In this document: positions 46,901 through 58,646 of the stretch, piece after piece
How positions within the stretch are numbered: the first letter of the stretch is position 1
Layout: each line of letters opens with the position of its first letter
Assembly (NCBI GenBank): GCA_964505415.1
Contig: CAZDHW010000004.1
Span: 5,051 to 69,050, forward strand
Source: an uncultured bacterium
GTDB lineage: Bacteria; Hydrothermota; Tepidihabitantia; Tepidihabitantales; DTDR01
Reading direction: 5' to 3'
DNA: 64,000 nucleotides
Notes under the pieces: model-generated
Told to the model about the DNA's origin: nothing
Database searches by the model: none
Seen by the model: the letters and a program-made list of their open reading frames with translations, nothing else
Made by a program: the position numbers and the translations under genes

Positions 46901-47620
46901 CAAAAACGAAAGATTAGCGTAGGTGATAAATTAGCGGGACGGCATGGAAATAAAGGAGTGATCAGTAAAATTTTACCTGTAGAAGATATGCCTTATTTAC
47001 CGGATGGCACACCAGTAGATATGGTGTTAAATCCTTTAGGAGTTCCATCGCGAATGAATATTGGGCAGATTTTAGAAACAGCTTTGGGCTGGGCAATGAA
47101 AGTACAGGGATGTCAAGCGATAACGCCTATATTTGAAGGAGCAACAATAAAGGAAATAAAAGAAGAATTAAAAAAAGCCGGTTTGCCTGAAGATGGTAAG
47201 ATTACTTTATATGACGGAAGGACAGGACTTCCGTTTAAAGAAAAAGTGGTTGTGGGGTACATTTACATGATGAAATTAATTCATATGGTGGACGATAAAA
47301 TTCATGCCCGATCCGTTGGACGGTATTCTTTAATTACCCAACAACCATTGGGGGGAAAAGCTCAGTTTGGTGGCCAAAGATTTGGCGAGATGGAAGTTTG
47401 GGCCTTAGAAGCTTATGGTGCTGCTTATACTTTACAAGAAATGCTTACTATAAAATCTGATGATGTAGAAGGAAGAACAGAACTTTTTGAATCTTTAATA
47501 AAAGGAACTAATCCACCCACTCCTAAAATTCCTGCCTCTTTTTCAGTATTAGTTAAAGAATTAAGAGGTCTTTGTTTAGATTTGGTACCAATTAATTTAG
47601 AGCGGAGGAAAAATGAGTGA
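43916..47620 (+). CDS. rpoB: DNA-directed RNA polymerase subunit beta
   Basis: 1234 aa. ...RRVSALGPGGL, FLEHNDADRALMGANMQRQAVP, GRHGNKGV, GGQRFGEMEVWALEAYGAAY. Confidence 0.99.
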   Translation: MKKRDFTKYKHSWEIPPLLSIQLESFRSFFQFEKPPEEREEIGLQKIFKEIFPIVDTHKRFILDFVKYEIKEPRYSPEEALLKGLSYDAPFYVTFRFIKGEPGKEKEEFKIKEIIEQDIYLFNLPLMTKDGTFIINGNERVVVNQLHRAPGVYLIREKSDHSLLLVPLRGAWFEMLISRDNDFSVLLDRKRKIPLFIFLQALGYSPEAALEKIYPDMIIEKEIEVGDMIAQQTNLEAIFIGEIITEGILEFLQKQGQTRLKCLKKDAPGIKVIHNVLKSHPFVDENEALKKIYKKLRGIEPTQLLTARNVIEGALFDITRFDLGKCGRFRLNQIFNENIPLEKTNFEKEELFKLIRRLLEFYERLIPPDDTEHLSARRVRSVGELLEPYFRNSLIAFTNQVKEKILQLGVSKITSLRELIQGKPIEGMVLKFFTQHPLCQYMEQVNPLSSLIHKRRVSALGPGGLTKETAGFEVRDVHYSHYGRICPIETPEGANIGLINTIATYSKINEFGFITTPYWRVKNGIVTKEIVYLAPYEEEGYKIAQFTTRLDEERRIIDKEVVVRYRGDVITVSREEVDFMDVSPKQLFSPSTVMIPFLEHNDADRALMGANMQRQAVPLLKPEKPLVATGVEEQWARESGAVVIAEEDGEVIKVDAERILVKTVTGLKEYRLKKFKKTNQYTCYNQIPKVKKGMKIKKGDLLADGPCTDDGQLALGRNILVAFLPWRGYNYEDAIVISENLLKEDVFTSIQILEFEIQARETKLGPEEITRDIPGVTEEDLAHLDKFGIVRIGTEVGPGDILVGRITPRGETEFMPEEKLLRAIFGEKAANVRDTSLRVEPGVYGTVIDVQIFSRRTDDPLAKEVFRIREEELEKRFAEKKNFLIQEKNEKLKNILLNVVASKNIKDKKNKIILKEGEKITEELFNSGKIDKIKTEDLIGLIKNEEKKKEIQKILEEFEVGLKLIEVERKKEQEKLKVGDELPSGVLKWVRVYIAQKRKISVGDKLAGRHGNKGVISKILPVEDMPYLPDGTPVDMVLNPLGVPSRMNIGQILETALGWAMKVQGCQAITPIFEGATIKEIKEELKKAGLPEDGKITLYDGRTGLPFKEKVVVGYIYMMKLIHMVDDKIHARSVGRYSLITQQPLGGKAQFGGQRFGEMEVWALEAYGAAYTLQEMLTIKSDDVEGRTELFESLIKGTNPPTPKIPASFSVLVKELRGLCLDLVPINLERRKNE

Positions 47621-50600
47621 AGAATTTATTTTAATGGATTTTGATGGTTTAAAAATAACTTTAGCTTCTCCAGAAACTATTAGAAGTTGGTCTTATGGAG
47701 AAGTAACAAAACCGGACACGATTAATTATCGAACTCAAAAACCAGAAAGAGATGGGCTTTTTTGTGAGAGAATATTTGGTCCGGTAAGAGATTACGAATG
47801 TAATTGCGGAAAGTATAAGAAAATAAGATTTAAAGGTACTATTTGTGACCGCTGCGGAGTAGAAGTTACTACTTCTTTAGTAAGAAGAGAAAGAATGGGT
47901 CATATTGAATTAGCGGCTCCGGTAGCTCATTTTCTTTTTTATCAAGTGCCGCCTTCAAAAATGGGTTTACTGCTAGATTACACAATTAACGAAATTCAAA
48001 GTATCTTGAATTATCAAATATATGTTGTATTGGAACCCGGCGATTCTCCTTATCGAGTTAAAGATTTAATAGAAGAAGAAGAATATTTAGAGAAGAAAAA
48101 AGAATATGACGGATTTATAGCGGCTACAGGTGCCGAAGCGTTAGAAGAACTTTTGAAAAGAATTGATTTAGAAAAATTAGCAGCTGAATTAAGAGCCCGG
48201 ATTCCTCATGAACAGTCGAGACGGTTTCAATTATTGAGAAGATTACAAATTGTTGAAGCTTTTAAGAATTCGGGCATAAGACCAGAATGGATGATTTTAC
48301 GTGTTATTCCTGTAATTCCCCCTGATTTACGTCCTTTGGTTACTTTAGAAGGGGGAAGATACGCTAGCGCCGATTTAAATGATCTTTATAAAAGAGTAAT
48401 TTCTAGGAATAATCGATTGAAACATCTTTTAAGTACCAAAACTCCGGAAGTGATTCTTAAGTATGAAAAAAGGTTACTGCAGGAGGCCGTAGATGCGCTT
48501 TTCAGTAATGAAAGTAAGCCTAATCCTATAATTGGAAAACAGAATCGTCCTTTAAAGTCGCTTTGTGAATCTCTTCGGGGAAAACAAGGGAGATTTAGAA
48601 GAAATCTTTTAGGTAAAAGAGTTGACTATTCGGGTCGATCAGTAATTGTTGTGGATCCAACTTTAAAACTTCACCAATGTGCTTTACCAAAAGAAATGGC
48701 GTATGAATTATTTAAACCAATGGTGATGAGGAAATTAGAAGAAATGAAAGTTGCTGATAGTCAGAAAACAGCCAAGGCGTTATATAGAAAAGCTCCACCA
48801 GAAGTTTGGGCAGCTTTGGTAGAGGTGACTAAAAACCATCCCGTTCTTTTAAATCGCGCACCAACTCTTCATCGTGTTTCTATCCAAGCTTTTTATCCTG
48901 TATTAGTAGAACATCGAGCAATAGGAATTCATCCATTAGTATGTCCACCTTTTAACGCTGATTTTGACGGTGACACAATGTCTTGTCACGTACCTCTTAT
49001 TCCTGAGGCAATTTTGGAATCTGCTACTCTTTTGCTTTCTTGCAACAATATTCTTTCACCCGCTCATGGGAAGCCATTAATGACACCTACCCAAGATATT
49101 GTAGCAGGTATTTATTTTATAACTAAAGAACATCCAACTGCGCCAAAAATTGATAGAGTATATGATGATTTTTCTGAAATAGTGAGTGGTTATGAATTAG
49201 GAGAATTTTCGATCCATGCTAAAATTAAATTTCGTTATAAAAATGTTACCTATGACACTACTGTGGGTCGAGTTATTTTAAACCATATTTTGCCTGATGA
49301 GCTTAGGTTTGTTAATGAAGTTTTGAATAAAGATAAACTTAATGAACTTGTAGATAAATGCTATCGCAAATTAGGAAGTAAAAGAACAGCTCAACTTTTA
49401 GATGATTTAAAGGATTTAGGATTTGAAATGGCTACTTGTGCGGGAATTTCTTTGGGTATGGATGATATTATTGTGCCCAAGGAAAAAGAAAAAATTATTA
49501 AAGAAGCAGAATCAGAAATTAAAAAAATATTGGAGAGGCACAGAAAGGGATACATTTCTGATTCTGAACGTTATAACATGGTAGTTACTATTTGGAATAA
49601 TGCCACTCAAGAAATTGAAAATAAGCTAATGGAAGAATTAGAAAAATCTCAAAATGGATTTAATCCTCTTTTCCTTCTTATTGATTCCGGTGCCCGAGGT
49701 TCAAAAGCTCAAGCAGTTCAAATTGGTGGAATGAGAGGTTTAATGGCAAAACCCCAAAGAGGAGGAGAAGGTGAGGAAGTTATTGAAACTCCCATTAAGA
49801 GTTCTTTTCAAGAAGGGTTATCAGTGTGGGAATATTTTATTTCTACCCGTGGCGGCAGAAAAGGATTAACCGATACTGCGTTGAAAACAGCTGAAGCAGG
49901 TTATCTTACTCGAAGACTAGTGGATGTCGCTCAAGAAGTAGTAATTACTATGGAAGATTGTGGAACGATTTTGAGTCAAGAAGTGACTGCTTTGAAAGAA
50001 GGAGGAGATATAATTGAATCGTTAGCAGAAAGAATTGTTGGAAGAATAGCTGCTGAGGACATTGTTAATCCGATTACTAACGAAATAATTGTGAAAGAAG
50101 GTGAGGAAATAGATGAAGAAAAAGCTAAAGAGATTGAAAATTGTGGAATTGAGAAAGTAAAAGTTCGTTCAGTTTTGACCTGTCAGGCCCCACATGGTTT
50201 GTGCGCTAAATGCTATGGAAGAAATTTAGCTACTGGTAAGTTAGTTGATGTAGGTGAAGCAGTAGGAATAATTGCCGCTCAATCGATTGGTGAGCCAGGT
50301 ACCCAATTAACATTGAGAACTTTTCATGTAGGAGGGATGGCAACCCATATGGTAGAACAAAATAAAGCAGTTGCAAAATTTGCAGGAAAAATTAAATATG
50401 ATAAACAACTACAGCATTCTGTAAGAAGCGACGGTCAAATAGTTACTTTGAATCCCGGAAAAATAGAGCTTATTGAGGATACCAAAAAAATAGATTACGA
50501 AGTTCCGGAAGGTGCGATTCTTCGAGTAGAAGATGGACAAAGAGTAAAGGAGAATGATATACTATTTGAATGGGAACCATATTCTATTTTAATAATTGCT

Positions 50601-51623
50601 AAAAAAAGTGGAAAAGTGAGATATTGTGATATTGAATTGGGAAAAACTCTTCAAGAAGATATCGATGAAAGGGTAGGGAGAAAAGAAAAAAGAGTTATTG
50701 AGGATCGGGAAAGAATGCGACATCCCAGATTAGAAATTTTAGATGAAACTGGAAAAGTTCTGGAAGTTAAGGAATTACCTAATGACGCATATTTAGTAGT
50801 TGAAGATGGTCAATTAGTAAGACCCGGAGATGTGCTAGCCCGGTTAGTTAAAGAAGTTGTTAGAGCAAAAGATATTACTGGCGGGTTACCGAAAGTGGCA
50901 GAGCTATTTGAGGCCAAGCGGGTGAAAGATCCAGCGGTAATAAGTGATATTGATGGTCGAGTAGAGGTTTCCCCACCTCATATGGGCATGAGAATTGTTA
51001 AAGTTGTGGCTGAAGATGGTAAAACTGAAAGAATTTACAAAATTCCGTACGGTAAATATTTATTAGTTAAAACTGGTGATATGGTGAAAGCAGGTGACAA
51101 ACTATGTGAAGGAGAGGTTGATCCCCACGATGTATTGAGAGTAAAAGGTTGGATGGCAGTCCAAGAGTTTTTAACTAATCGCATTCAAGAAGTTTATCGG
51201 TTACAAAATGTAAAAATAAATGATAAACATATTTCCATTATTGTGCGTCAAATGTTAAAAAAGGTAAAGATAGAAGACCCGGGCGATAGCAATTTTATGG
51301 AAGGTCAAATTGTGGATGCTCAAAAGGTTGATTTAGAAAATCAGCGTTTAACTGCTGAGCATAAACGACCAGCGAGATATACTAGAATTATTTTAGGAAT
51401 TACAAGGGCAGCTTTGCTGACCGAAAGTTGGCTTTCAGCTGCATCTTTTCAGGAGACTACCCGGGTACTTTCAGAAGCGGCTATCGAAGGTAGAATTGAT
51501 TATTTAAAGGGATTAAAAGAAAATGTAATTGTTGGTAGATTAATTCCTGCCGGTACTGGTTTTCGTGAATTTAAAAAAGTAAAAGTAGTAACAAAAGCAG
51601 AAGAAATTAAGGAGGTAGGTTAA
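47613..51623 (+). CDS. rpoC: DNA-directed RNA polymerase subunit beta-prime
   Basis: 1336 aa. Zinc motif CNCGKYKK...CDRCGVEV and catalytic NADFDGD. Overlaps rpoB by 8 nt. Confidence 0.99.
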
Positions 51624-51624
51624 T

Positions 51625-52008
51625 ATGCCAACGATTAATCAATTGGTTAGAAAAGGAAGAAAAAAGATAAAGAAAAAAAGTAAGGCCCCTGCTTTAATGG
51701 GGTGTCCTCAAAAACGAGGGGTATGCATTCGCGTTTACACAACTACTCCTAAAAAACCTAATTCAGCATTGAGAAAAGTTTGTAAGGTAAGATTAAGTAA
51801 CGGACATGAAGTAATTGCTTATATTCCTGGTGAAGGTCATAATCTTCAAGAACATTCTATTGTGTTGATTCGCGGTGGAAGAGTTAAAGATTTACCCGGT
51901 GTAAGATATCACGTAATAAGAGGAGTTTATGATTGTGCCGGTGTTGAAGGCAGAAGACAAAGTCGTTCTTTATACGGTGCCAAAAAACCAAAAGAAACAA
52001 AAAGGTGA
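51625..52008 (+). CDS. rpsL: 30S ribosomal protein S12
   Basis: 127 aa. [12 protein letters not shown]...[12 protein letters not shown]...[14 protein letters not shown]. Confidence 0.98.
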
Positions 52009-52016
52009 GGTAAAAA

Positions 52017-52487
52017 ATGGCACGAAGAAAAAGAGCAGAAGTAAGAGAAATTTCTCCAGACCCAGTATATAATTCGGTTCTTGTTCAGAAATTTATAAAT
52101 AACCTAATGTGGGATGGAAAGAAGACAATCGCTCAAAAAATTTTTTATGGTGCTTTAGAACTGATTAAAAAGAAAACTGGAGAGGATGGTTACAGTGTAT
52201 TTTTAAAAGCAATTAATAACGTGAAACCCGTATTAGAAGTAAGACCGCGAAGAGTAGGAGGTGCTACTTATCAAATTCCTGTGGAAGTTTCTCCCCGAAG
52301 AAGGGAATCTTTGGCGATTAAATGGATTATTCGAGCTGCCCGAGAGCGTAGCGAATATAGGATGGTTGAAAGATTGGCTAACGAATTAATCGAAGCTGCT
52401 AAGGGAACTGGTCAGGCAATAAAAATTAAAGAAACTACCCATAAAATGGCCGAAGCTAATCGAGCTTTTGCTCATTTTCGTTGGTAA
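52017..52487 (+). CDS. rpsG: 30S ribosomal protein S7
   Basis: 156 aa. ...DPVYNS.LV.KFIN..M.DGKK..A..I...A; C-terminal [10 protein letters not shown]. Confidence 0.97.
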
Positions 52488-53073
52488 AAATATTAAAACT
52501 TTAATTATTAACTTCTACCCTTCCAAAAAAGAAGCAAAAATAAGTTTTTATATTGAATTAATAAAAAATTTTAGCAATTATCGAGTAATTCCGGAAAATG
52601 AGTTTTCACTTAGTTTAATAAAAAATTCAAATGCTCTTATTCTTTCTGGCTCTCCCCGAATGCTTTCCCGAGGAGAATATAAAGAAGAATTTTTAGAGAT
52701 ATTAAGAAATATTTCTCTTCCCATTTTAGGAATCTGTTACGGACATCAACTTTTAGCCAAAGCTTTTGGAGCTCAAATTGGTCGGTATCCAGAATTTATT
52801 AAAAAAGAGGAAGAAATTTATATTTTGGATAAAAAAGATATATTTTATAATTTGCCGGATAAGATCGTGGTTAAGGAATTTCATCAAGAATATGTAATAA
52901 AAAATTCTTTAGAAAATACTAATTTAGAAGTTATCGCCTTTTCTCAAACTTGTGAAGTAGAAGCAATAAGACATAAAAAAAGAAAAATTTTTGGCGTTCA
53001 GTTTCATTTAGAACGTTCTGGAGATATCGGATATAAAATAATGAAAAATTTTTACGAAAAAGTTGTTTTTTAA
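52468..53073 (+). CDS. Stand-alone class-I glutamine amidotransferase-like protein (GuaA N-domain-like)
   Basis: 201 aa. Nucleophile elbow [17 protein letters not shown] and His/Glu block FGVQFHLE. The ATG overlaps the rpsG 3' end by 20 nt. Confidence 0.7.
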
Positions 53074-53108
53074 TTAAATATTCTTTTTCAAAAATTGATA
53101 TTAAAATA

Positions 53109-53137
53109 TTGACAAGTTATTAAATTTTGGTTATAAT
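53109..53137 (+). promoter_or_regulatory. Consensus sigma70 promoter directly abutting the start codon at 53143
   Basis: TTGACA (53109-53114), 17-nt spacer, TATAAT (53132-53137). Only 5 nt precede ATG 53143, so a leaderless mRNA is predicted. Confidence 0.6.
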
Positions 53138-53142
53138 TTTAT

Positions 53143-54081
53143 ATGATAAAAAAATTGTTATTAATAATAATAAATTTTTTTCTTATTTTGGTTATTATGG
53201 AAAATTATAAAGAATATCAACGATTAAACTTTTTAGATGAAGAATATTTAAAAGAAAAAGATAAAATTAATAAGGAAATTTTTTTATTAAAGGAAATTGC
53301 TATTAATTTAGAGAAATTTCGGTTGTTTTTTGAACCTATTTATTTAGAAGAGATTAAGAAATTGGCTAGAAAAAGTGAAATTTTTAAAAATGGCACTTAT
53401 CCAATGCTTATAAATAATTTAGATTATTTAGCTGTTAAGCCGAAAAAAAATGATTTGACGGTTTTCAGTAATTTTAGGATGTTTTTAACCGAGAAGGAAA
53501 AGGAACAAAAAAATAAATTGAATAATTTAGAAATTAATTATAAAAAGTTAAAAGATAAAAGGAAAGAAAAAATATATTGGCAAAATATAATAATTACCTG
53601 CGGATTAATTGCTTTTTTTTTGGTGAATATATTTTTCCCTTTTAAAAATAAAAAAGAAAAAATTTTTAACAATTATCTTTCTTTATTAGAATTACTTAAA
53701 ATTGTGAAAGAAAAAAATGATAAATATTTAGAAAAAATAACTAATTGGGAAAATAAGATCAAAGAATTCAAGAAATCTGGGGAAAATTTGGGTACTTCCC
53801 AGGATTTAAAAGATATTGATAATTATCGAAAAAATTTTGCTTATTGTTTACTAAATCTTCAATTAGGTTTATTGCAAAAAGACCACTTACTTATTAATAA
53901 ATACTTTACAAAGTTTCAACAAATGAAAGAGAAAATTTTAAATTTCCTTATTCAAAATAAGAGCCAATATTTGAATAATTATTTTAAAGAAAGTGAAGAA
54001 ATGATTAATGGTTTTAAAGAAGATTTAATAAATCTTAAAAAAATAATCGGTGAAATCAAAAATTACGAAATAAAAAAATAA
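53143..54081 (+). CDS. Hypothetical 2-TM coiled-coil membrane protein (MCP-like topology, no recognisable signalling motif)
   Basis: 312 aa. TM1 at aa about 4-19, a roughly 130-aa Lys/Glu-rich loop, TM2 (IIITCGLIAFFLVNIFFPF), then a roughly 150-aa predicted coiled coil. I recognise no family signature. Confidence 0.5.
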   Translation: MIKKLLLIIINFFLILVIMENYKEYQRLNFLDEEYLKEKDKINKEIFLLKEIAINLEKFRLFFEPIYLEEIKKLARKSEIFKNGTYPMLINNLDYLAVKPKKNDLTVFSNFRMFLTEKEKEQKNKLNNLEINYKKLKDKRKEKIYWQNIIITCGLIAFFLVNIFFPFKNKKEKIFNNYLSLLELLKIVKEKNDKYLEKITNWENKIKEFKKSGENLGTSQDLKDIDNYRKNFAYCLLNLQLGLLQKDHLLINKYFTKFQQMKEKILNFLIQNKSQYLNNYFKESEEMINGFKEDLINLKKIIGEIKNYEIKK

Positions 54082-54083
54082 TT

Positions 54084-54536
54084 ATGGGAAAAAGTAACTT
54101 TTTAATATGCGAAATTGGTGAAGTGGAATTAGCTTTATCTATTTACGGAATAAAAGAAATTTTGTGGGATGTAAAAGTTTATCCTTTGCCTCAGGTATCC
54201 GAGTACATCATTGGTATTCTTGCTGATGACAAAAAATTAGCTGTGGTAATTGATTTGGTAAAGTTTTTTGGTATAAGTGAAGAAAATAAAGAAAAAATTT
54301 TATTGAAATTTAAAACTGAGGAAATTTTGGTTTTTTTAGCAGTAAAAGATGTTAAAGAAATTATTGAAGTAAAAGAAGAAGAAATTTATCCTTGTCCTCC
54401 CATGTTCTCTTCATTAATCCCTAATTATTATATTAGTAGTTTAATAAAAAAAGAAGAAAGATTTATCCCTATTATAGATATTGCCAAAATTCTTGCTCAT
54501 GAAGAAATAAAACCTTATACAATGATTAGTAAGTAA
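54084..54536 (+). CDS. CheW-like domain protein (orphan)
   Basis: 150 aa. [22 protein letters not shown]...[34 protein letters not shown] aligns block-for-block with the CheW consensus (F..F.....yai....V.EI......tpvP.....v.GvinlRG.i.pViDL...lg). The second half, ...[13 protein letters not shown].....[12 protein letters not shown], matches too. Confidence 0.75.
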
Positions 54537-54544
54537 ATTTTTTC

Positions 54545-54572
54545 TTGACTTTAAAAAGATTTTTAGTATAAT
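54545..54572 (+). promoter_or_regulatory. Promoter of rplM-rpsI-rpsB-tsf-pyrH-frr-uppS-cdsA
   Basis: TTGACT (54545-54550), 16-nt spacer, TATAAT (54567-54572). The ATG at 54586 is 13 nt downstream and there is no SD. Confidence 0.55.
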
Positions 54573-54585
54573 TTTATACAAATTT

Positions 54586-55023
54586 ATGAAAACAACGATT
54601 ATTACAGATAAAAAAATGGTAGAAAGAAAATGGTGGTTGGTAGATGCTAAAGATAAAATCTTAGGTCGATTGGCTTCTAAAATTGCTTTTTTGCTTATGG
54701 GCAAACATAAACCTTATTATACTCCTCATATTGATTGCGGAGATTTTGTTATTGTTATTAATGCTTCGCAAATTAAAGTTACTGGGAAAAAAGAAAAAAA
54801 GAAGATTTATTACTGGCATACTGGTTATCCAGGGGGATTAAAGTCGATGACTTTTGAAGAAATGATGAAAAAAAATCCTAAAAAAGTTATAGAATTAGCC
54901 GTAAAAAGAATGTTGCCAAAAAATCGTTTACTTAAATTTCGCTTAAGAAGGTTAAAAATTTATTTAGATGATAAACATCATCACGAAGCTCAAAAAAAAT
55001 TAATTGTTGAGGCAAAATTATGA
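54586..55023 (+). CDS. rplM: 50S ribosomal protein L13
   Basis: 145 aa. ...[37 protein letters not shown]. Confidence 0.97.
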
Positions 55024-55421
55024 GTCAATTTTATTTTGCTTCGGGCAGTAGAAAAGAAGCCGTAGCCAAAGTTTGGCTTTATCTTAAGGCCAGCAATGAT
55101 AATTGGAAATTTATTGTGAACAATCAACCTGCAGAAAAATATTTTGGCCGTTTTGACCTAATTCTTTTGGCTCAACAACCGTTGAAAGTTACTAATCTTT
55201 TAGGACGCTTTGATGTGAAATGCGAAGTGAAAGGTGGGGGGAAATCAGGTCAGGCAGGTGCTATTTCTTTGGGAATTGCTCGGGCATTAGTTAGCTATCA
55301 GCCAGAGTTAAGAAAAATCCTTGCCGATGCTGAATTATTAAAAAGAGATCCTCGAGAAAAAGAAAGATGCAAATATGGATTAGCAAAAAGAAGGAAGAGT
55401 TTCCAATGGACCAAACGTTAA
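55020..55421 (+). CDS. rpsI: 30S ribosomal protein S9
   Basis: 133 aa. ...[12 protein letters not shown]...[19 protein letters not shown]...[25 protein letters not shown]. Confidence 0.97.
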
Positions 55422-56119
55422 CTATTAAAGAATTGTTAGAAGCCGGCGTTCATTTTGGTCATCTCTCTAAAAGATGGAATCCTAAAATGGCCTCTTTTAT
55501 CTTTGGCAAAAAAAATGGGGTCTACATAATAAACGTAGAAAAAACTTTAGAACAGTTACGCATTGCGTGCGAAGCAGTAAGAAGGATAGCCGAGAAAGGG
55601 GAGGATATTTTATTTGTCGGAAGAAAACAGCAAGCAAAACCAATAATTGAAGAAGAGGCAACGAGGTGTCAGGCTTTATATGTAACAGAAAGATGGGTTG
55701 GTGGACTTTTGACAAATTTTACTGTTATTAGTTCACGAATTACCCGTTACTTAGAATTAGAAAAAACTTTTCAAACAAAAGATTTTAAAAACATGGGTAA
55801 TAAAGAGATTAGAAAATTAGAAAGAGAATTTGGTAAATTAGAAAAAATTTATAAGGGGCTAAGAGAAATGGAAAGACTTCCAGGAATTATTTATGTGGTT
55901 GATGTGCGGATGGAAAGAACCCCTATTTTAGAAGCTAAAAGAGTAGGCATTCCAATTGTGGCTTTAGTTGATACCGATGGCGATCCTACTTTAGTTGATT
56001 ATCCTATACCAGGAAATGATGACGCAATGCGCTCAATAAAATTGATAACTGCGCAAATTGCAAATGCTGTAATCGAAGGTAGAAAAATTTTTGAACAAGA
56101 ATCAAAGGAGGAATTATGA
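55406..56119 (+). CDS. rpsB: 30S ribosomal protein S2
   Basis: The ORF-track start 55367 is rejected in favour of ATG 55406 ([19 protein letters not shown]...), which has AAGGAAG 9 nt upstream and matches the conserved S2 N-terminus. Overlaps rpsI by 16 nt. Confidence 0.93.
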
Positions 56120-56712
56120 AAGAAATTTCTATCGAAAAAATTAAAGAACTGAGACAAAGAACCGGTTCAGGAGTTTTAGATTGTAAGTTAGCTTTAGAAG
56201 AAGCTAACGGAGATATCGAGAAGGCCATTGAAATTTTAAGAAAAAAAGGTATTGCTAAAGCCGAGAAAAAAAAGGAACGGCCTACGGCAGAAGGAGTGAT
56301 CGATGCTTATATTCATCCCGGAGAAAAATTAGGAGTATTGGTTGAAGTCACTTGTGAAACGGATTTTGTAGCTCGAAATCAAGAATTTCGGAGATTCGTT
56401 AGAGATATTGCTATGCAAATTGCTGCTACTGACCCTTTGGCAATAAGTCCTGAGGATTTACCTCCTCATATTATTGAAAGAGAAAGGAAAATTTATGAGG
56501 AACAACTAAAAGATAGTGGCAAGCCTAAAGAAGTAATTGAAAAAATAATTCAAGGTAAATTACAAAAATTTTATGAGGAGGTTTGTCTTTTAAATCAAGC
56601 GTTTATAAAAAATCCTGAGAAGACCGTGGAAGTTTACTTAAAAGAACAAATTGCTAAATTTGGCGAAAATATAAGAATAAAACGTTTTGCTCGATTTAAA
56701 ATTGGTGAATAA
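56116..56712 (+). CDS. tsf: Elongation factor Ts (short form)
   Basis: 198 aa. [45 protein letters not shown]. Confidence 0.95.
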
Positions 56713-57394
56713 AATTCCTAAATATCAAAAAGTTCTTCTTAAGTTAACCGGCGAAATTTGGGAAAGAAGAAAACTTTTGGAAGAAATAAGCGAAGAAATA
56801 ATTGAAATTGTTAAAGACTTTTCAATAAAAATGGTAATCGTTACGGGAGGTGGTAATTTTATTCGAGGAGTAGTAGATGATATGGGGAATCGGTTATTGG
56901 CTGACCGAATAGGAATGTTAGGCACAGTTATTAATGCGTTAATAATTGAGAATTATTTAAAAAAAAGTCTCCCTTGCACAGTTTTTTCGTCTTTTTTTTG
57001 TATGCCTCTTGTGGAATATTATAATGTAGAAAAAGCTAAAGAGACTTTGGAAGAAAAGAAATTGATAATTATTGCTGGAGGTACAGGAAATCCTTATTTT
57101 TCTACTGATACTGCTTGTGCTTTGCGAGCGCGAGAATTAGGTGCGGAGATAATATTAAAAGGAACAAAAGTAGAGGGAATTTATTCTGACGATCCCTTTA
57201 AAAATAAAAAAGCAAAATTTTACAAAAAAATTACTTATGAAGAAGCAATTAAAAAAGAATTAAAAATAATGGATGGAACAGCTTTTTTTCTTTTAAAAGA
57301 AGCCAAAATTCCTTTAGTCGTTTATAATGCAATGAAAAAAGGTAATCTAAAAAAAATCTTATTAGGCGAAAGTATTGGAAGTTTAGTATGTTAG
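56687..57394 (+). CDS. pyrH: UMP kinase
   Basis: 235 aa. YQKVLLKLTGE, VTGGGNFIRG, AGGTGNPYFSTDTAC. The start codon is uncertain (TTG 56687, TTG 56702 or GTG 56705). Confidence 0.92.
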   Translation: MLDLKLVNKIPKYQKVLLKLTGEIWERRKLLEEISEEIIEIVKDFSIKMVIVTGGGNFIRGVVDDMGNRLLADRIGMLGTVINALIIENYLKKSLPCTVFSSFFCMPLVEYYNVEKAKETLEEKKLIIIAGGTGNPYFSTDTACALRARELGAEIILKGTKVEGIYSDDPFKNKKAKFYKKITYEEAIKKELKIMDGTAFFLLKEAKIPLVVYNAMKKGNLKKILLGESIGSLVC

Positions 57395-57945
57395 AGGAAA
57401 TCTATAAAATCGCAAGAAATAAAATGCAAAAGACTTATGAATTGCTTAGTCAAGAATTAGCAAAAATTAGAACTGGTCGCGCCAATCCAGCGATTTTAGA
57501 TGGAATTAAGGTTGATTATTACGGCAATCTAACTCCTTTAAAACAATTGGCTAATATTTATGTACCTGAACCAAGAATGTTAGTTATCCAGGTGTGGGAT
57601 AAGAATGCGGTAGCAGAAATCGAAAAAGCTATCTATAAAGCTGAATTAGGACTTACACCTAAAATAGATGGTTCTTTAATTAAAATTCCTATTCCACCCT
57701 TAACTGAGGAAAGACGTAAAGAACTTATTAAATTATGTGCCAAACTAGCCGAAGATGCTAAAATTGCTATTAGAAATATTAGGAGAGATGCTAATGATGA
57801 AATAAAAAAATTGGAAAAGGAAAAAAAAATTTCCGAAGATGATGGTCGAATAGGAATCAAAAAAATTCAAGAGATTACTGATGAATTCACCGAAAAAATA
57901 GAAGAACTTCTAAAAAAGAAAGAAAAAGAAATCTTAGAAGAGTAG
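57388..57945 (+). CDS. frr: Ribosome recycling factor
   Basis: 185 aa. ...ELAKIRTGRANPAILDGIKVDYYG...IPIPPLTEERRKEL.K......E.AKIAIRNIRRDAND. Confidence 0.96.
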   Translation: MLEEIYKIARNKMQKTYELLSQELAKIRTGRANPAILDGIKVDYYGNLTPLKQLANIYVPEPRMLVIQVWDKNAVAEIEKAIYKAELGLTPKIDGSLIKIPIPPLTEERRKELIKLCAKLAEDAKIAIRNIRRDANDEIKKLEKEKKISEDDGRIGIKKIQEITDEFTEKIEELLKKKEKEILEE

Positions 57946-58646
57946 TGCAAAAGATTCCTACCCACATTGCTATTATCATGGATGGCAACGGGCGTTGGGC
58001 GAAAGAAAGAAATCTTCCTCGGTATTTTGGTCATAAAGCCGGTGTGGAGGCGGTTAGGGAGGTGGTACGTGGTTGTGCCCGATTAGGAATAAAATATTTA
58101 ACCCTTTTTGTCTTTTCTACCGAAAATTGGGAAAGACCCAAAAGTGAAGTGAATGCTTTGATGCAATTATTGAAAAAATTGTTAAAAAGTGAAGCTAAAG
58201 AATTATACGAAAATAATGTTCGTGTAAAGGCAATTGGCCAAATTGAAAAGTTGCCTAAAGAAGTTAAGGAGAATTTAGAAGAATTAATTAACTTAACTAA
58301 AGATAATAATGGTTTAACTTTGGTTTTAGCCTTGAGTTATGGTGGTCGTCAAGAAATTGTAGAGGCTGTAAAGAAAATTTTGAAAATAAAAATGGAGCCA
58401 GAAAAACTTGATGAAAAGGAATTTAGAAAATTTCTCTACGACCCCGAAATTCCCGATCCCGATTTACTAATAAGAACCGGTGGAGAATTACGAATATCTA
58501 ACTTTTTACTTTTTCAATCAGCTTATACCGAATTTTATTTTACTCCTACTCTTTGGCCTGATTTTCGGGAAAAAGAATTAATTTTGGCGATTGAAGATTA
58601 CCAAAAAAGAAAAAGAAAATTCGGAAGAGTTTTAGAATTTGAGTGA
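57945..58646 (+). CDS. uppS: Undecaprenyl-diphosphate synthase (cis-prenyltransferase)
   Basis: 233 aa. HIAIIMDGNGRWA, TLFVFSTENWERP, RTGGELRISNFLL.Q.AYTEF. The GTG start overlaps the frr stop by 1 nt. Confidence 0.95.
   Translation: MQKIPTHIAIIMDGNGRWAKERNLPRYFGHKAGVEAVREVVRGCARLGIKYLTLFVFSTENWERPKSEVNALMQLLKKLLKSEAKELYENNVRVKAIGQIEKLPKEVKENLEELINLTKDNNGLTLVLALSYGGRQEIVEAVKKILKIKMEPEKLDEKEFRKFLYDPEIPDPDLLIRTGGELRISNFLLFQSAYTEFYFTPTLWPDFREKELILAIEDYQKRKRKFGRVLEFE

Follow-up and report, generated by a model that had tools for sequence, protein, structure and literature searches.

The stretch of DNA analysed here (the window) consists of 64,000 nucleotides of contig C4 (C4:5051-69050; CAZDHW010000004.1) from a genome of candidate division WOR-3 (G000; GCA_964505415.1), an assembly of 1.50 Mb in 49 contigs with 31.9% GC that is rated 97% complete. 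It contains a module of two genes, here called A and B, which encode a two-pass membrane protein with the outline of a chemoreceptor and a small CheW-like protein. CheW is usually regarded as serving solely to couple receptors to the kinase CheA. In this genome it is found with neither partner; its constraint is comparable to that of ribosomal proteins, and its gene is coupled to one for a receptor-shaped protein that lacks the signalling tip. The module consists of the following features.

53109–53137, + strand: sigma-70-type promoter of A and B (TTGACA at 53109–53114, a 17-nt spacer, TATAAT at 53132–53137, then 5 nt to the ATG at 53143).
53143–54081, + strand: gene A, 312 aa, a predicted N-in/C-in protein that crosses the membrane twice, its outside domain being sensor-like and built of four helices and its cytoplasmic domain all-helical.
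54084–54536, + strand: gene B, 150 aa, a single-domain CheW-like protein.

A preliminary description, made from the letters of the window, had assigned B to CheW along its whole length, and the assignment holds at the level of hidden Markov models (HMMs): B matches PF01584 over positions 2–137 of 138 (E = 8.6e-15, 55 bits against a cut-off of 23.5). In phmmer searches it also aligns over its full length with the CheW structures 2qdl, 2ho9 and 1k0s (E = 9e-10 to 3.5e-5). We take B to be a true but divergent CheW domain. Its residues were mapped from an alignment with the CheW proteins of E. coli, T. maritima and T. tengcongensis. In E. coli numbering, E38 is kept (E25 of B), as is G57, and V36 is replaced by I; G41, R62 and G63 have become W28, D49 and K50, respectively, so that the conserved set of CheW interface residues is no longer intact. 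In all nine members of the B family the residue corresponding to R62 is D or E and that corresponding to G63 is K. V36, E38, G41, R62 and G63 are part of the surfaces with which CheW binds receptors and CheA (PMC13098124).

In a maximum-likelihood tree the P5-like domains of CheA separate from all CheWs, the B clade included, with 99/93 support, and B is therefore grouped with the CheW lineage and not with the CheA-P5 lineage. B itself is on a long branch, and its deeper placement is not resolved by the tree. The best matches of the B profile within the phylum are lysine-rich CheWs of other WOR-3 families (47–52 bits). The relatives closest to B, in families f35/f36, are CheWs of 230–247 aa with a lysine-rich N-terminal extension (L051:3-3376, G240; L046:2-3400, G249), encoded in a cluster with a tetratricopeptide-repeat protein, an ExeA-like AAA ATPase and a multi-pass methyl-accepting chemotaxis protein (MCP). 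This cluster may be a pilus-linked sensory module; an ExeA-like ATPase partner of its type was not found in the host genome.

Searching the assembly with profiles identified B as its only CheW-like domain, gave no match to the MCPsignal profile and did not find the flagellar export gene FHIPEP. The other four genomes of the genus contain exactly one CheW domain each. Counting CheA by CheW-domain matches calls for caution, as illustrated by genome G099 (L074:6117-12279), which encodes a CheW, two MCPs and a CheA–CheY fusion though it was scored with one CheW domain. Because the CheA of G099 had escaped the CheW-domain search, the host genome was re-checked for CheA by tblastn. The queries were two CheA, one CheR, one CheB and three MCP proteins, and they returned only generic receiver and HATPase matches; for CheR and CheB the single query each gave receiver-domain matches only, a test of low sensitivity with no HMM search run. 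The earlier statement that the 64 kb hold no CheA, MCP or flagellar gene thereby extends to the whole 97%-complete genome. A bona fide MCP together with a full che operon elsewhere, which would make A and B just a dispersed pair, was looked for and did not occur.

Four of the five HATPase open reading frames (ORFs) found in the genome were scanned against Pfam, and none of the four carries Hpt, H-kinase_dim or CheW; three have PAS, one of these also HisKA. The remaining ORF, which encodes a hybrid kinase on contig C9, was inspected by eye only. Five receiver domains are encoded, three of them in single-domain proteins, and genes of type IV pilus or type II secretion systems are represented by four ATPases (two PilB/GspE-like, two PilT-like), PilC/GspF, a prepilin peptidase and a secretin. 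The C9 hybrid kinase (796 aa; receiver-PAS-HisKA-HATPase, as read by eye) lies in a row of genes (G000:C9:32980-39501) with a chain-length-determinant/tyrosine-kinase-like gene, a single-domain receiver and a PilB/GspE-like ATPase, which may be a two-component system that controls a pilus or secretion ATPase.

Across the phylum CheW domains are present in 124 of 272 genomes, usually three or four per genome and including those of CheA-sized ORFs, and in the host order in only 8 of 66. The only canonical che cluster found in the order (L073; G063:C489:1-16000), which accounts for one of these eight, is on a contig of 64% GC in a metagenome-assembled genome (MAG) with 7% contamination; the contig is probably a contaminant, the other WOR-3 loci having 33–44% GC. 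The census bears on the view that A and B are an ordinary dispersed receptor/CheW pair, with CheA and the MCPs lying in the missing 3% of the genome or too divergent to be recognized. The host assembly is indeed a MAG in 49 contigs, a real CheA did escape the CheW search in G099, and type IV pilus genes are present. Against such a view, five independently assembled genus genomes each have exactly one CheW domain, and the host genome gave no match to MCPsignal, which is among the best-conserved bacterial domains. The search with two CheA queries gave generic kinases, the four scanned ORFs have no Hpt, H-kinase_dim or CheW, A does not score as an MCP (see below) and nearly the whole order is without Che genes. 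We consider a dispersed pair very unlikely.

Gene A has hydrophobic segments at residues ~5–23 and ~148–168, KK at its N-terminus and, following the first transmembrane segment (TM1), an acidic stretch, which points to an N-in/C-in two-pass protein. Hydropathy, charge and an AlphaFold model built from the family alignment agree on the topology of a class-I receptor: N-in, TM1, an outside helical domain, TM2 and a cytoplasmic helical domain. In the model the outside domain (~25–145) is formed by four helices with pLDDT (predicted local distance difference test) values of 80–96, the first running on from TM1 and the last into TM2, and the cytoplasmic part (177–311) comprises four helices of low confidence. 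A Foldseek search with the model gave no match below E = 0.4; the best local matches, which are weak, were to the periplasmic four-helix sensors QseE, Adeh_2942 and NarQ (template-modelling score ~0.5). The chemoreceptor topology given in the preliminary description, with two transmembrane segments and an outside domain, stands; of its cytoplasmic 'coiled coil' only the helical character is shown, and heptad periodicity is weak. That description had also found neither an MCP signalling hairpin nor HAMP in A, and rightly: Pfam searches gave no match to MCPsignal (PF00015) or HAMP (PF00672) at E ≤ 1, and comparison of the cytoplasmic part with a profile of 121 MCP sequences in hhalign gave a probability of 0.1%, whereas the mini-MCP described below, used as a positive control, reached 100% (E = 1e-42). 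One conserved helix-turn-helix of A, LLNLQLGLLQxDxxLINKYF, was considered as a decayed MCP tip, an idea that was dropped for lack of support in profile comparison (E = 0.17, probability 0.3%).

Neither Pfam nor NCBIfam searches assigned A to a family, and a profile search against PDB sequences gave a chance coiled-coil match only. The family is tiny, comprising 16 proteins at ≥52% identity in a word search; within the order it is limited to one WOR-3 genus, and a HMMER search of its profile against 1.84 billion representatives recovered its own clusters only. The extreme C-terminus of A, IGEIKNYEIKK (residues 302–312; 54046–54081 of the window), is nearly invariant in a family that is otherwise 52–86% identical. 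It looks like a docking tail, by analogy with NWETF, the docking tail of some chemoreceptors.

Conservation of the pair in related genomes, proposed earlier as a check, was confirmed: A, B, their order, neighbours and promoter are kept in G001, G002, G003, G005 and a closer metagenome relative, and in 5/5 informative genomes of the genus. G004 was considered as a natural knock-out of A and B and set aside, rpsG being missing there as well, as expected of an assembly gap. The ATG of B lies 2 nt past the stop codon of A in the host genome, not three as first described, and overlaps it (ATGA) in G001, G002, G003, G005 and the closer metagenome relative. Both reading frames are intact in five species and several metagenome relatives, and each family has more than 70 invariant residues. 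The ratio of nonsynonymous to synonymous substitution rates (dN/dS), calculated against the closest relative at a dS of ~0.3–0.4, is 0.19 for A and 0.05 for B, compared with 0.16 for the neighbouring amidotransferase gene, 0.02 for rplM and 0.07 for rpsI. The ranges are 0.19–0.30 for A and 0.05–0.19 for B, and the outside and cytoplasmic parts of A are under equal constraint. A is fast-evolving and strongly AT-biased (20% GC). The two genes strictly co-occur, and both are missing from all other genomes of the order. Taken together, A and B are under purifying selection and translationally coupled; this selection, the coupling and the strict co-occurrence speak for a joint action of the two.

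These results also speak to the idea that A and B are a functionless relic heading for loss, which is attractive in a lineage that is clearly losing Che genes and for a gene as fast-evolving and poor in GC as A. Decay is hard to reconcile with frames kept open in five species and metagenome relatives at dN/dS values of 0.05–0.30, with a B constrained like ribosomal protein S9, with a conserved promoter and start/stop overlap and with the invariant residues of either family, and we regard it as the least probable of the explanations considered.

A different proposal is that B serves another machine, as a PilI-like pilus adaptor or a binder of a PAS-type histidine kinase, and that A is an unrelated protein which happens to be co-transcribed. 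Its appeal lies in the remodelled canonical surface of B and in the inventory of the genome, which offers pilus ATPases, three PAS kinases, one sensor-less kinase ORF, the C9 hybrid and three single-domain receivers. Unrelated proteins would not be expected to co-occur strictly and to be missing together from the rest of the order, nor to have their start and stop codons overlapping in 4/5 species and a metagenome relative, and no CheW-dependent kinase architecture was found in the host genome; we hold this proposal to be unlikely.

A further source of evidence is a kinase-less cluster in two other families of the order (G007 and G011) and on six metagenome contigs, eight independent contigs in all. 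Its genes encode, in order, a 609-aa cargo protein of the type IX secretion system (T9SS), a CheW of 142–197 aa, a two-pass mini-MCP of ~300 aa, a protein of 327–644 aa and CzcD. Occurrences are located as follows.

L018:1939-4393: sister cluster of G007.
L019:3-2284: sister cluster of G011.
L020:4102-6722: sister cluster.
L023:7583-10818: sister cluster.
L028:4528-7536: sister cluster.
L029:4491-6926: sister cluster.
L030:3524-6142: sister cluster.

The mini-MCP has a very short MCPsignal domain (PF00015, E ~1e-17). In the 327–644-aa protein the C-terminal domain has the CheA-P5 fold (Foldseek match to 4jpb_A, template-modelling score 0.87, E = 4e-11) and the N-terminal domain the CheA-P1 fold (1i5n and 3kyi, scores 0.71–0.77); a kinase domain and an invariant histidine are both missing from this P1/P5 protein. 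A kinase partner of the CheA4 type was not detected in G007, in which the only two CheW-like domains found are both in the cluster. The host genome keeps an ortholog of the T9SS cargo gene, followed there by holA-like and leuS genes; the P1/P5 protein and czcD were not found in it. A weak P1-like tblastn match on contig C14 was rejected, as it falls within an unrelated protein of 636 aa.

The mini-MCP resembles A in the following segment.

53212–53367, + strand: segment of A aligning with the mini-MCP, residues ~24–75, motif EIFLLKEIAINLEKFRLFFEPIYLEEIK; NLEKFRLFFE in A against xLEKYRLFxQ in the mini-MCP, at the same place after TM1.

In hhalign the two families match with a probability of 51–78% (E = 1.9e-5 to 1.5e-4). 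The score of 38.0 compares with a maximum of 19.6 among 100 column shuffles and with 12.8 for the reversed alignment, and three unrelated MCP families score 11.8–13.7. BLASTP gives E = 0.001 at equivalent coordinates. The match is well above shuffles and unrelated families, and the first outside helix of A is probably, at the 51–78% of the profile comparison, homologous to that of the WOR-3 mini-MCP.

The same comparison is central to a competing account, in which A is a lineage-specific membrane protein without chemoreceptor ancestry that was joined by a stray CheW, its likeness to the mini-MCP being convergence in a short amphipathic helix; A and B would still function as a pair, in an unrelated membrane complex. 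That the A profile retrieves only its own family among 1.84 billion representatives, that its cytoplasmic domain has no similarity to MCPs and that Foldseek returns nothing below E = 0.4 would all be expected on such an account, as would a gene order unlike that of the sister cluster and an origin of B left open by profile search and tree. Convergence explains less well why proteins that share length, topology and taxonomic order match at an equivalent place after TM1, why the score of the match is double that of the top-scoring shuffle among 100 and triple that of unrelated MCP families, and why the partner gene encodes a CheW in both settings. An origin without chemoreceptor ancestry is, in our judgement, doubtful, though less so than the other alternatives.

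We favour the explanation that A and B are a reduced, kinase-independent remnant of a chemoreceptor–CheW couple that acts as a receptor–CheW scaffold, and give it a probability of about 0.55. A would dimerize in the membrane, and B would dock on the cytoplasmic helices of A through its remodelled receptor-tip/CheA-P5 surface; docking of this kind would account for the substitutions of G41, R62 and G63, which are invariant in the family. As there is no kinase in the genome, the output would not be CheA–CheY phosphorylation. The pair would most likely be a membrane-anchored adaptor or scaffold that couples an outside cue, or membrane position, to the assembly or recruitment of a non-Che partner; candidates in this genome are the three single-domain receivers and the type IV pilus/secretion machinery. 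In evolutionary terms, a full Che system, as present in many WOR-3 lineages, may have been reduced to a kinase-less remnant of CheW, mini-MCP and P1/P5 protein, and a remnant of this sister type may then have given rise in the host genus to A, a tip-less receptor descendant, and a CheW with a rebuilt surface. Stepwise reduction is the most economical reading. The 'minimal or repurposed scaffold' of the preliminary description is therefore retained as the favoured reading, on account of the CheW HMM match, the lack of MCPsignal and HAMP in A, the lack of CheA, MCPs and flagella and the signs of selection; a free invention is improbable, A deriving most likely from a WOR-3 mini-chemoreceptor with a kinase-less intermediate in the sister families.

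Several observations weigh against this explanation. The link between A and the mini-MCP is a single segment of ~50 residues, and the cytoplasmic domains have no similarity (probability 0.3%); that of A is modelled, at low confidence, as four helices and not as one hairpin. Gene order is A then B in the host genus, but in the sister families CheW precedes the mini-MCP. The CheW of those families is not, in particular, the nearest to B, and the CheW tree is without deep resolution. Profiles can miss a very divergent CheA P5, that of G099 having escaped PF01584 at E ≤ 1e-3. The probability of the whole explanation is set no higher than 0.55 on three counts: a link to the mini-MCP that consists of one helix, a different gene order and an origin of B left open in the tree. 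Two more specific origins of B were rejected: descent from the P5 domain of the third gene of the sister cluster, which would fit the gene order, is ruled out by the tree, and a specific affinity to CheW1 of the sister families is not upheld, since CheWs found in the phylum-wide profile search and those of the PDB score higher and the tree does not resolve it.

As in the Tsr/Tar–CheW–CheA system of E. coli and Tm14–CheW–CheA of T. maritima, a two-pass N-in/C-in protein with an outside helical bundle adjoins a single-domain CheW. Unlike the canonical core unit, A lacks an MCP signalling hairpin, a HAMP domain and a methylation region, B has G41, R62 and G63 replaced, and in the genome no CheA, CheY-type pathway, CheR or CheB was detected and no flagella, as judged by FHIPEP. 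The pair works, as we read it, like an MCP–CheW couple but is not a member of that class, A giving no MCPsignal match and B departing from it in interface residues and in co-occurrence. Receptor–CheW (MCP–CheW) complexes are able to form without CheA (PMC13098124).

A close parallel is the WOR-3 mini-MCP cluster, from the same order, which shares with A and B the receptor length and topology, an adjacent CheW, the lack of a kinase domain and, probably, the first outside helix. It differs in keeping the MCP tip and a third, P1/P5 protein, in its CheW-first order and in its T9SS cargo and czcD neighbours; the host genus has lost both the tip and the third gene, and its pair is located elsewhere. 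CheA3 of R. sphaeroides is a 'split' CheA of P1 and P5 only, which is phosphorylated by CheA4. The third protein of the sister cluster is like CheA3 in consisting of P1, a long linker and P5, with Foldseek matches to 3kyi (CheA3 P1) and 4jpb_A (P5), but unlike it in the lack of a detected CheA4-type partner (G007) and of an invariant histidine in the P1-like domain. Vibrio ParP has a CheW-like domain with a task other than kinase coupling. CheA architectures without HATPase_c have been catalogued (10.1101/2022.05.07.491035), and CheWS of Treponema denticola is a CheW-domain protein with a task beyond kinase coupling (PMC10653840). ParP and CheWS resemble the present case in that a CheW-like domain can be an anchoring or integration module; unlike A and B, they insert into arrays of CheA and MCPs, whereas the host genome has no array component other than B.

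With the sister three-gene cluster, A and B form a graded series, in which a kinase-independent scaffold function (localization, lattice formation or effector recruitment) becomes testable. A tentative and broader possibility is that one WOR-3 order kept array building blocks for a kinase-free purpose, in the form of CheW, mini-receptor and P1/P5 remnant and then of A and a rebuilt CheW. If these proteins still form a membrane lattice or polar platform, it would be the first CheW-based assembly in genomes without CheA, as well as a natural experiment on the roles of array scaffolds apart from the control of phosphorylation. The label 'chemotaxis protein CheW' in WOR-3 MAGs does not imply chemotaxis. 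In the literature searched we found no account of a CheW kept in CheA-free genomes or of the sister cluster, nor anything bearing directly on chemotaxis in WOR-3.

The promoter of the module was read directly as described earlier, a perfect TTGACA-17-TATAAT ending 5 nt before the ATG at 53143. It is the sole 12/12 match within 47000–58000 (11 kb), and in 5/5 genus genomes it is unchanged in either hexamer, in spacer length and in the 5-nt gap, whereas the adjoining coding DNA varies. With the -10 hexamer ending so close to the start codon, the A–B mRNA is predicted to have no leader or almost none. The leaderless arrangement had been presented as a feature of the module, which it is not, because the geometry is shared by other consensus promoters of the genome: at 48 of 112 TTGAC[AT]-N16-18-TATAAT sites a long ORF starts 5–8 nt past the -10 hexamer, in 21 cases at exactly 5 nt. 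A leaderless or near-leaderless geometry seems to be a genome-wide habit.

Genes around the pair are arranged in the order rpoC, rpsL, rpsG, a 201-aa class-I glutamine amidotransferase, A, B, rplM, rpsI, rpsB and tsf. Rfam searches of 52400–54700 and PADLOC searches of A and B gave no match. At third codon positions A and B have the same GC content as their neighbours, and we regard both as working, native genes; their 'insertion' between ribosomal operons is to be understood as description only. Of the flanks named in the preliminary description the rplM–rpsI side is right, and the rpsL–rpsG side is not, as the amidotransferase gene lies between rpsG and A. The two bordering features are the following.

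54545–54572, + strand: the promoter of rplM, downstream boundary of the module (TTGACT-16-TATAAT, 13 nt before the ATG at 54586).
52468–53073, + strand: upstream neighbour, outside the module, a 201-aa class-I glutamine amidotransferase gene (PF00117, E = 1.8e-31).

The start of rplM is without a Shine–Dalgarno sequence. The slot after rpsG is usually occupied by fusA; here it holds the stand-alone amidotransferase gene, which overlaps rpsG by 20 nt. The nearest models to its product are GMP synthase subunit A and the N-terminus of guaA, both under the cut-off. In relatives its stop codon falls within the -35 hexamer of the A–B promoter.

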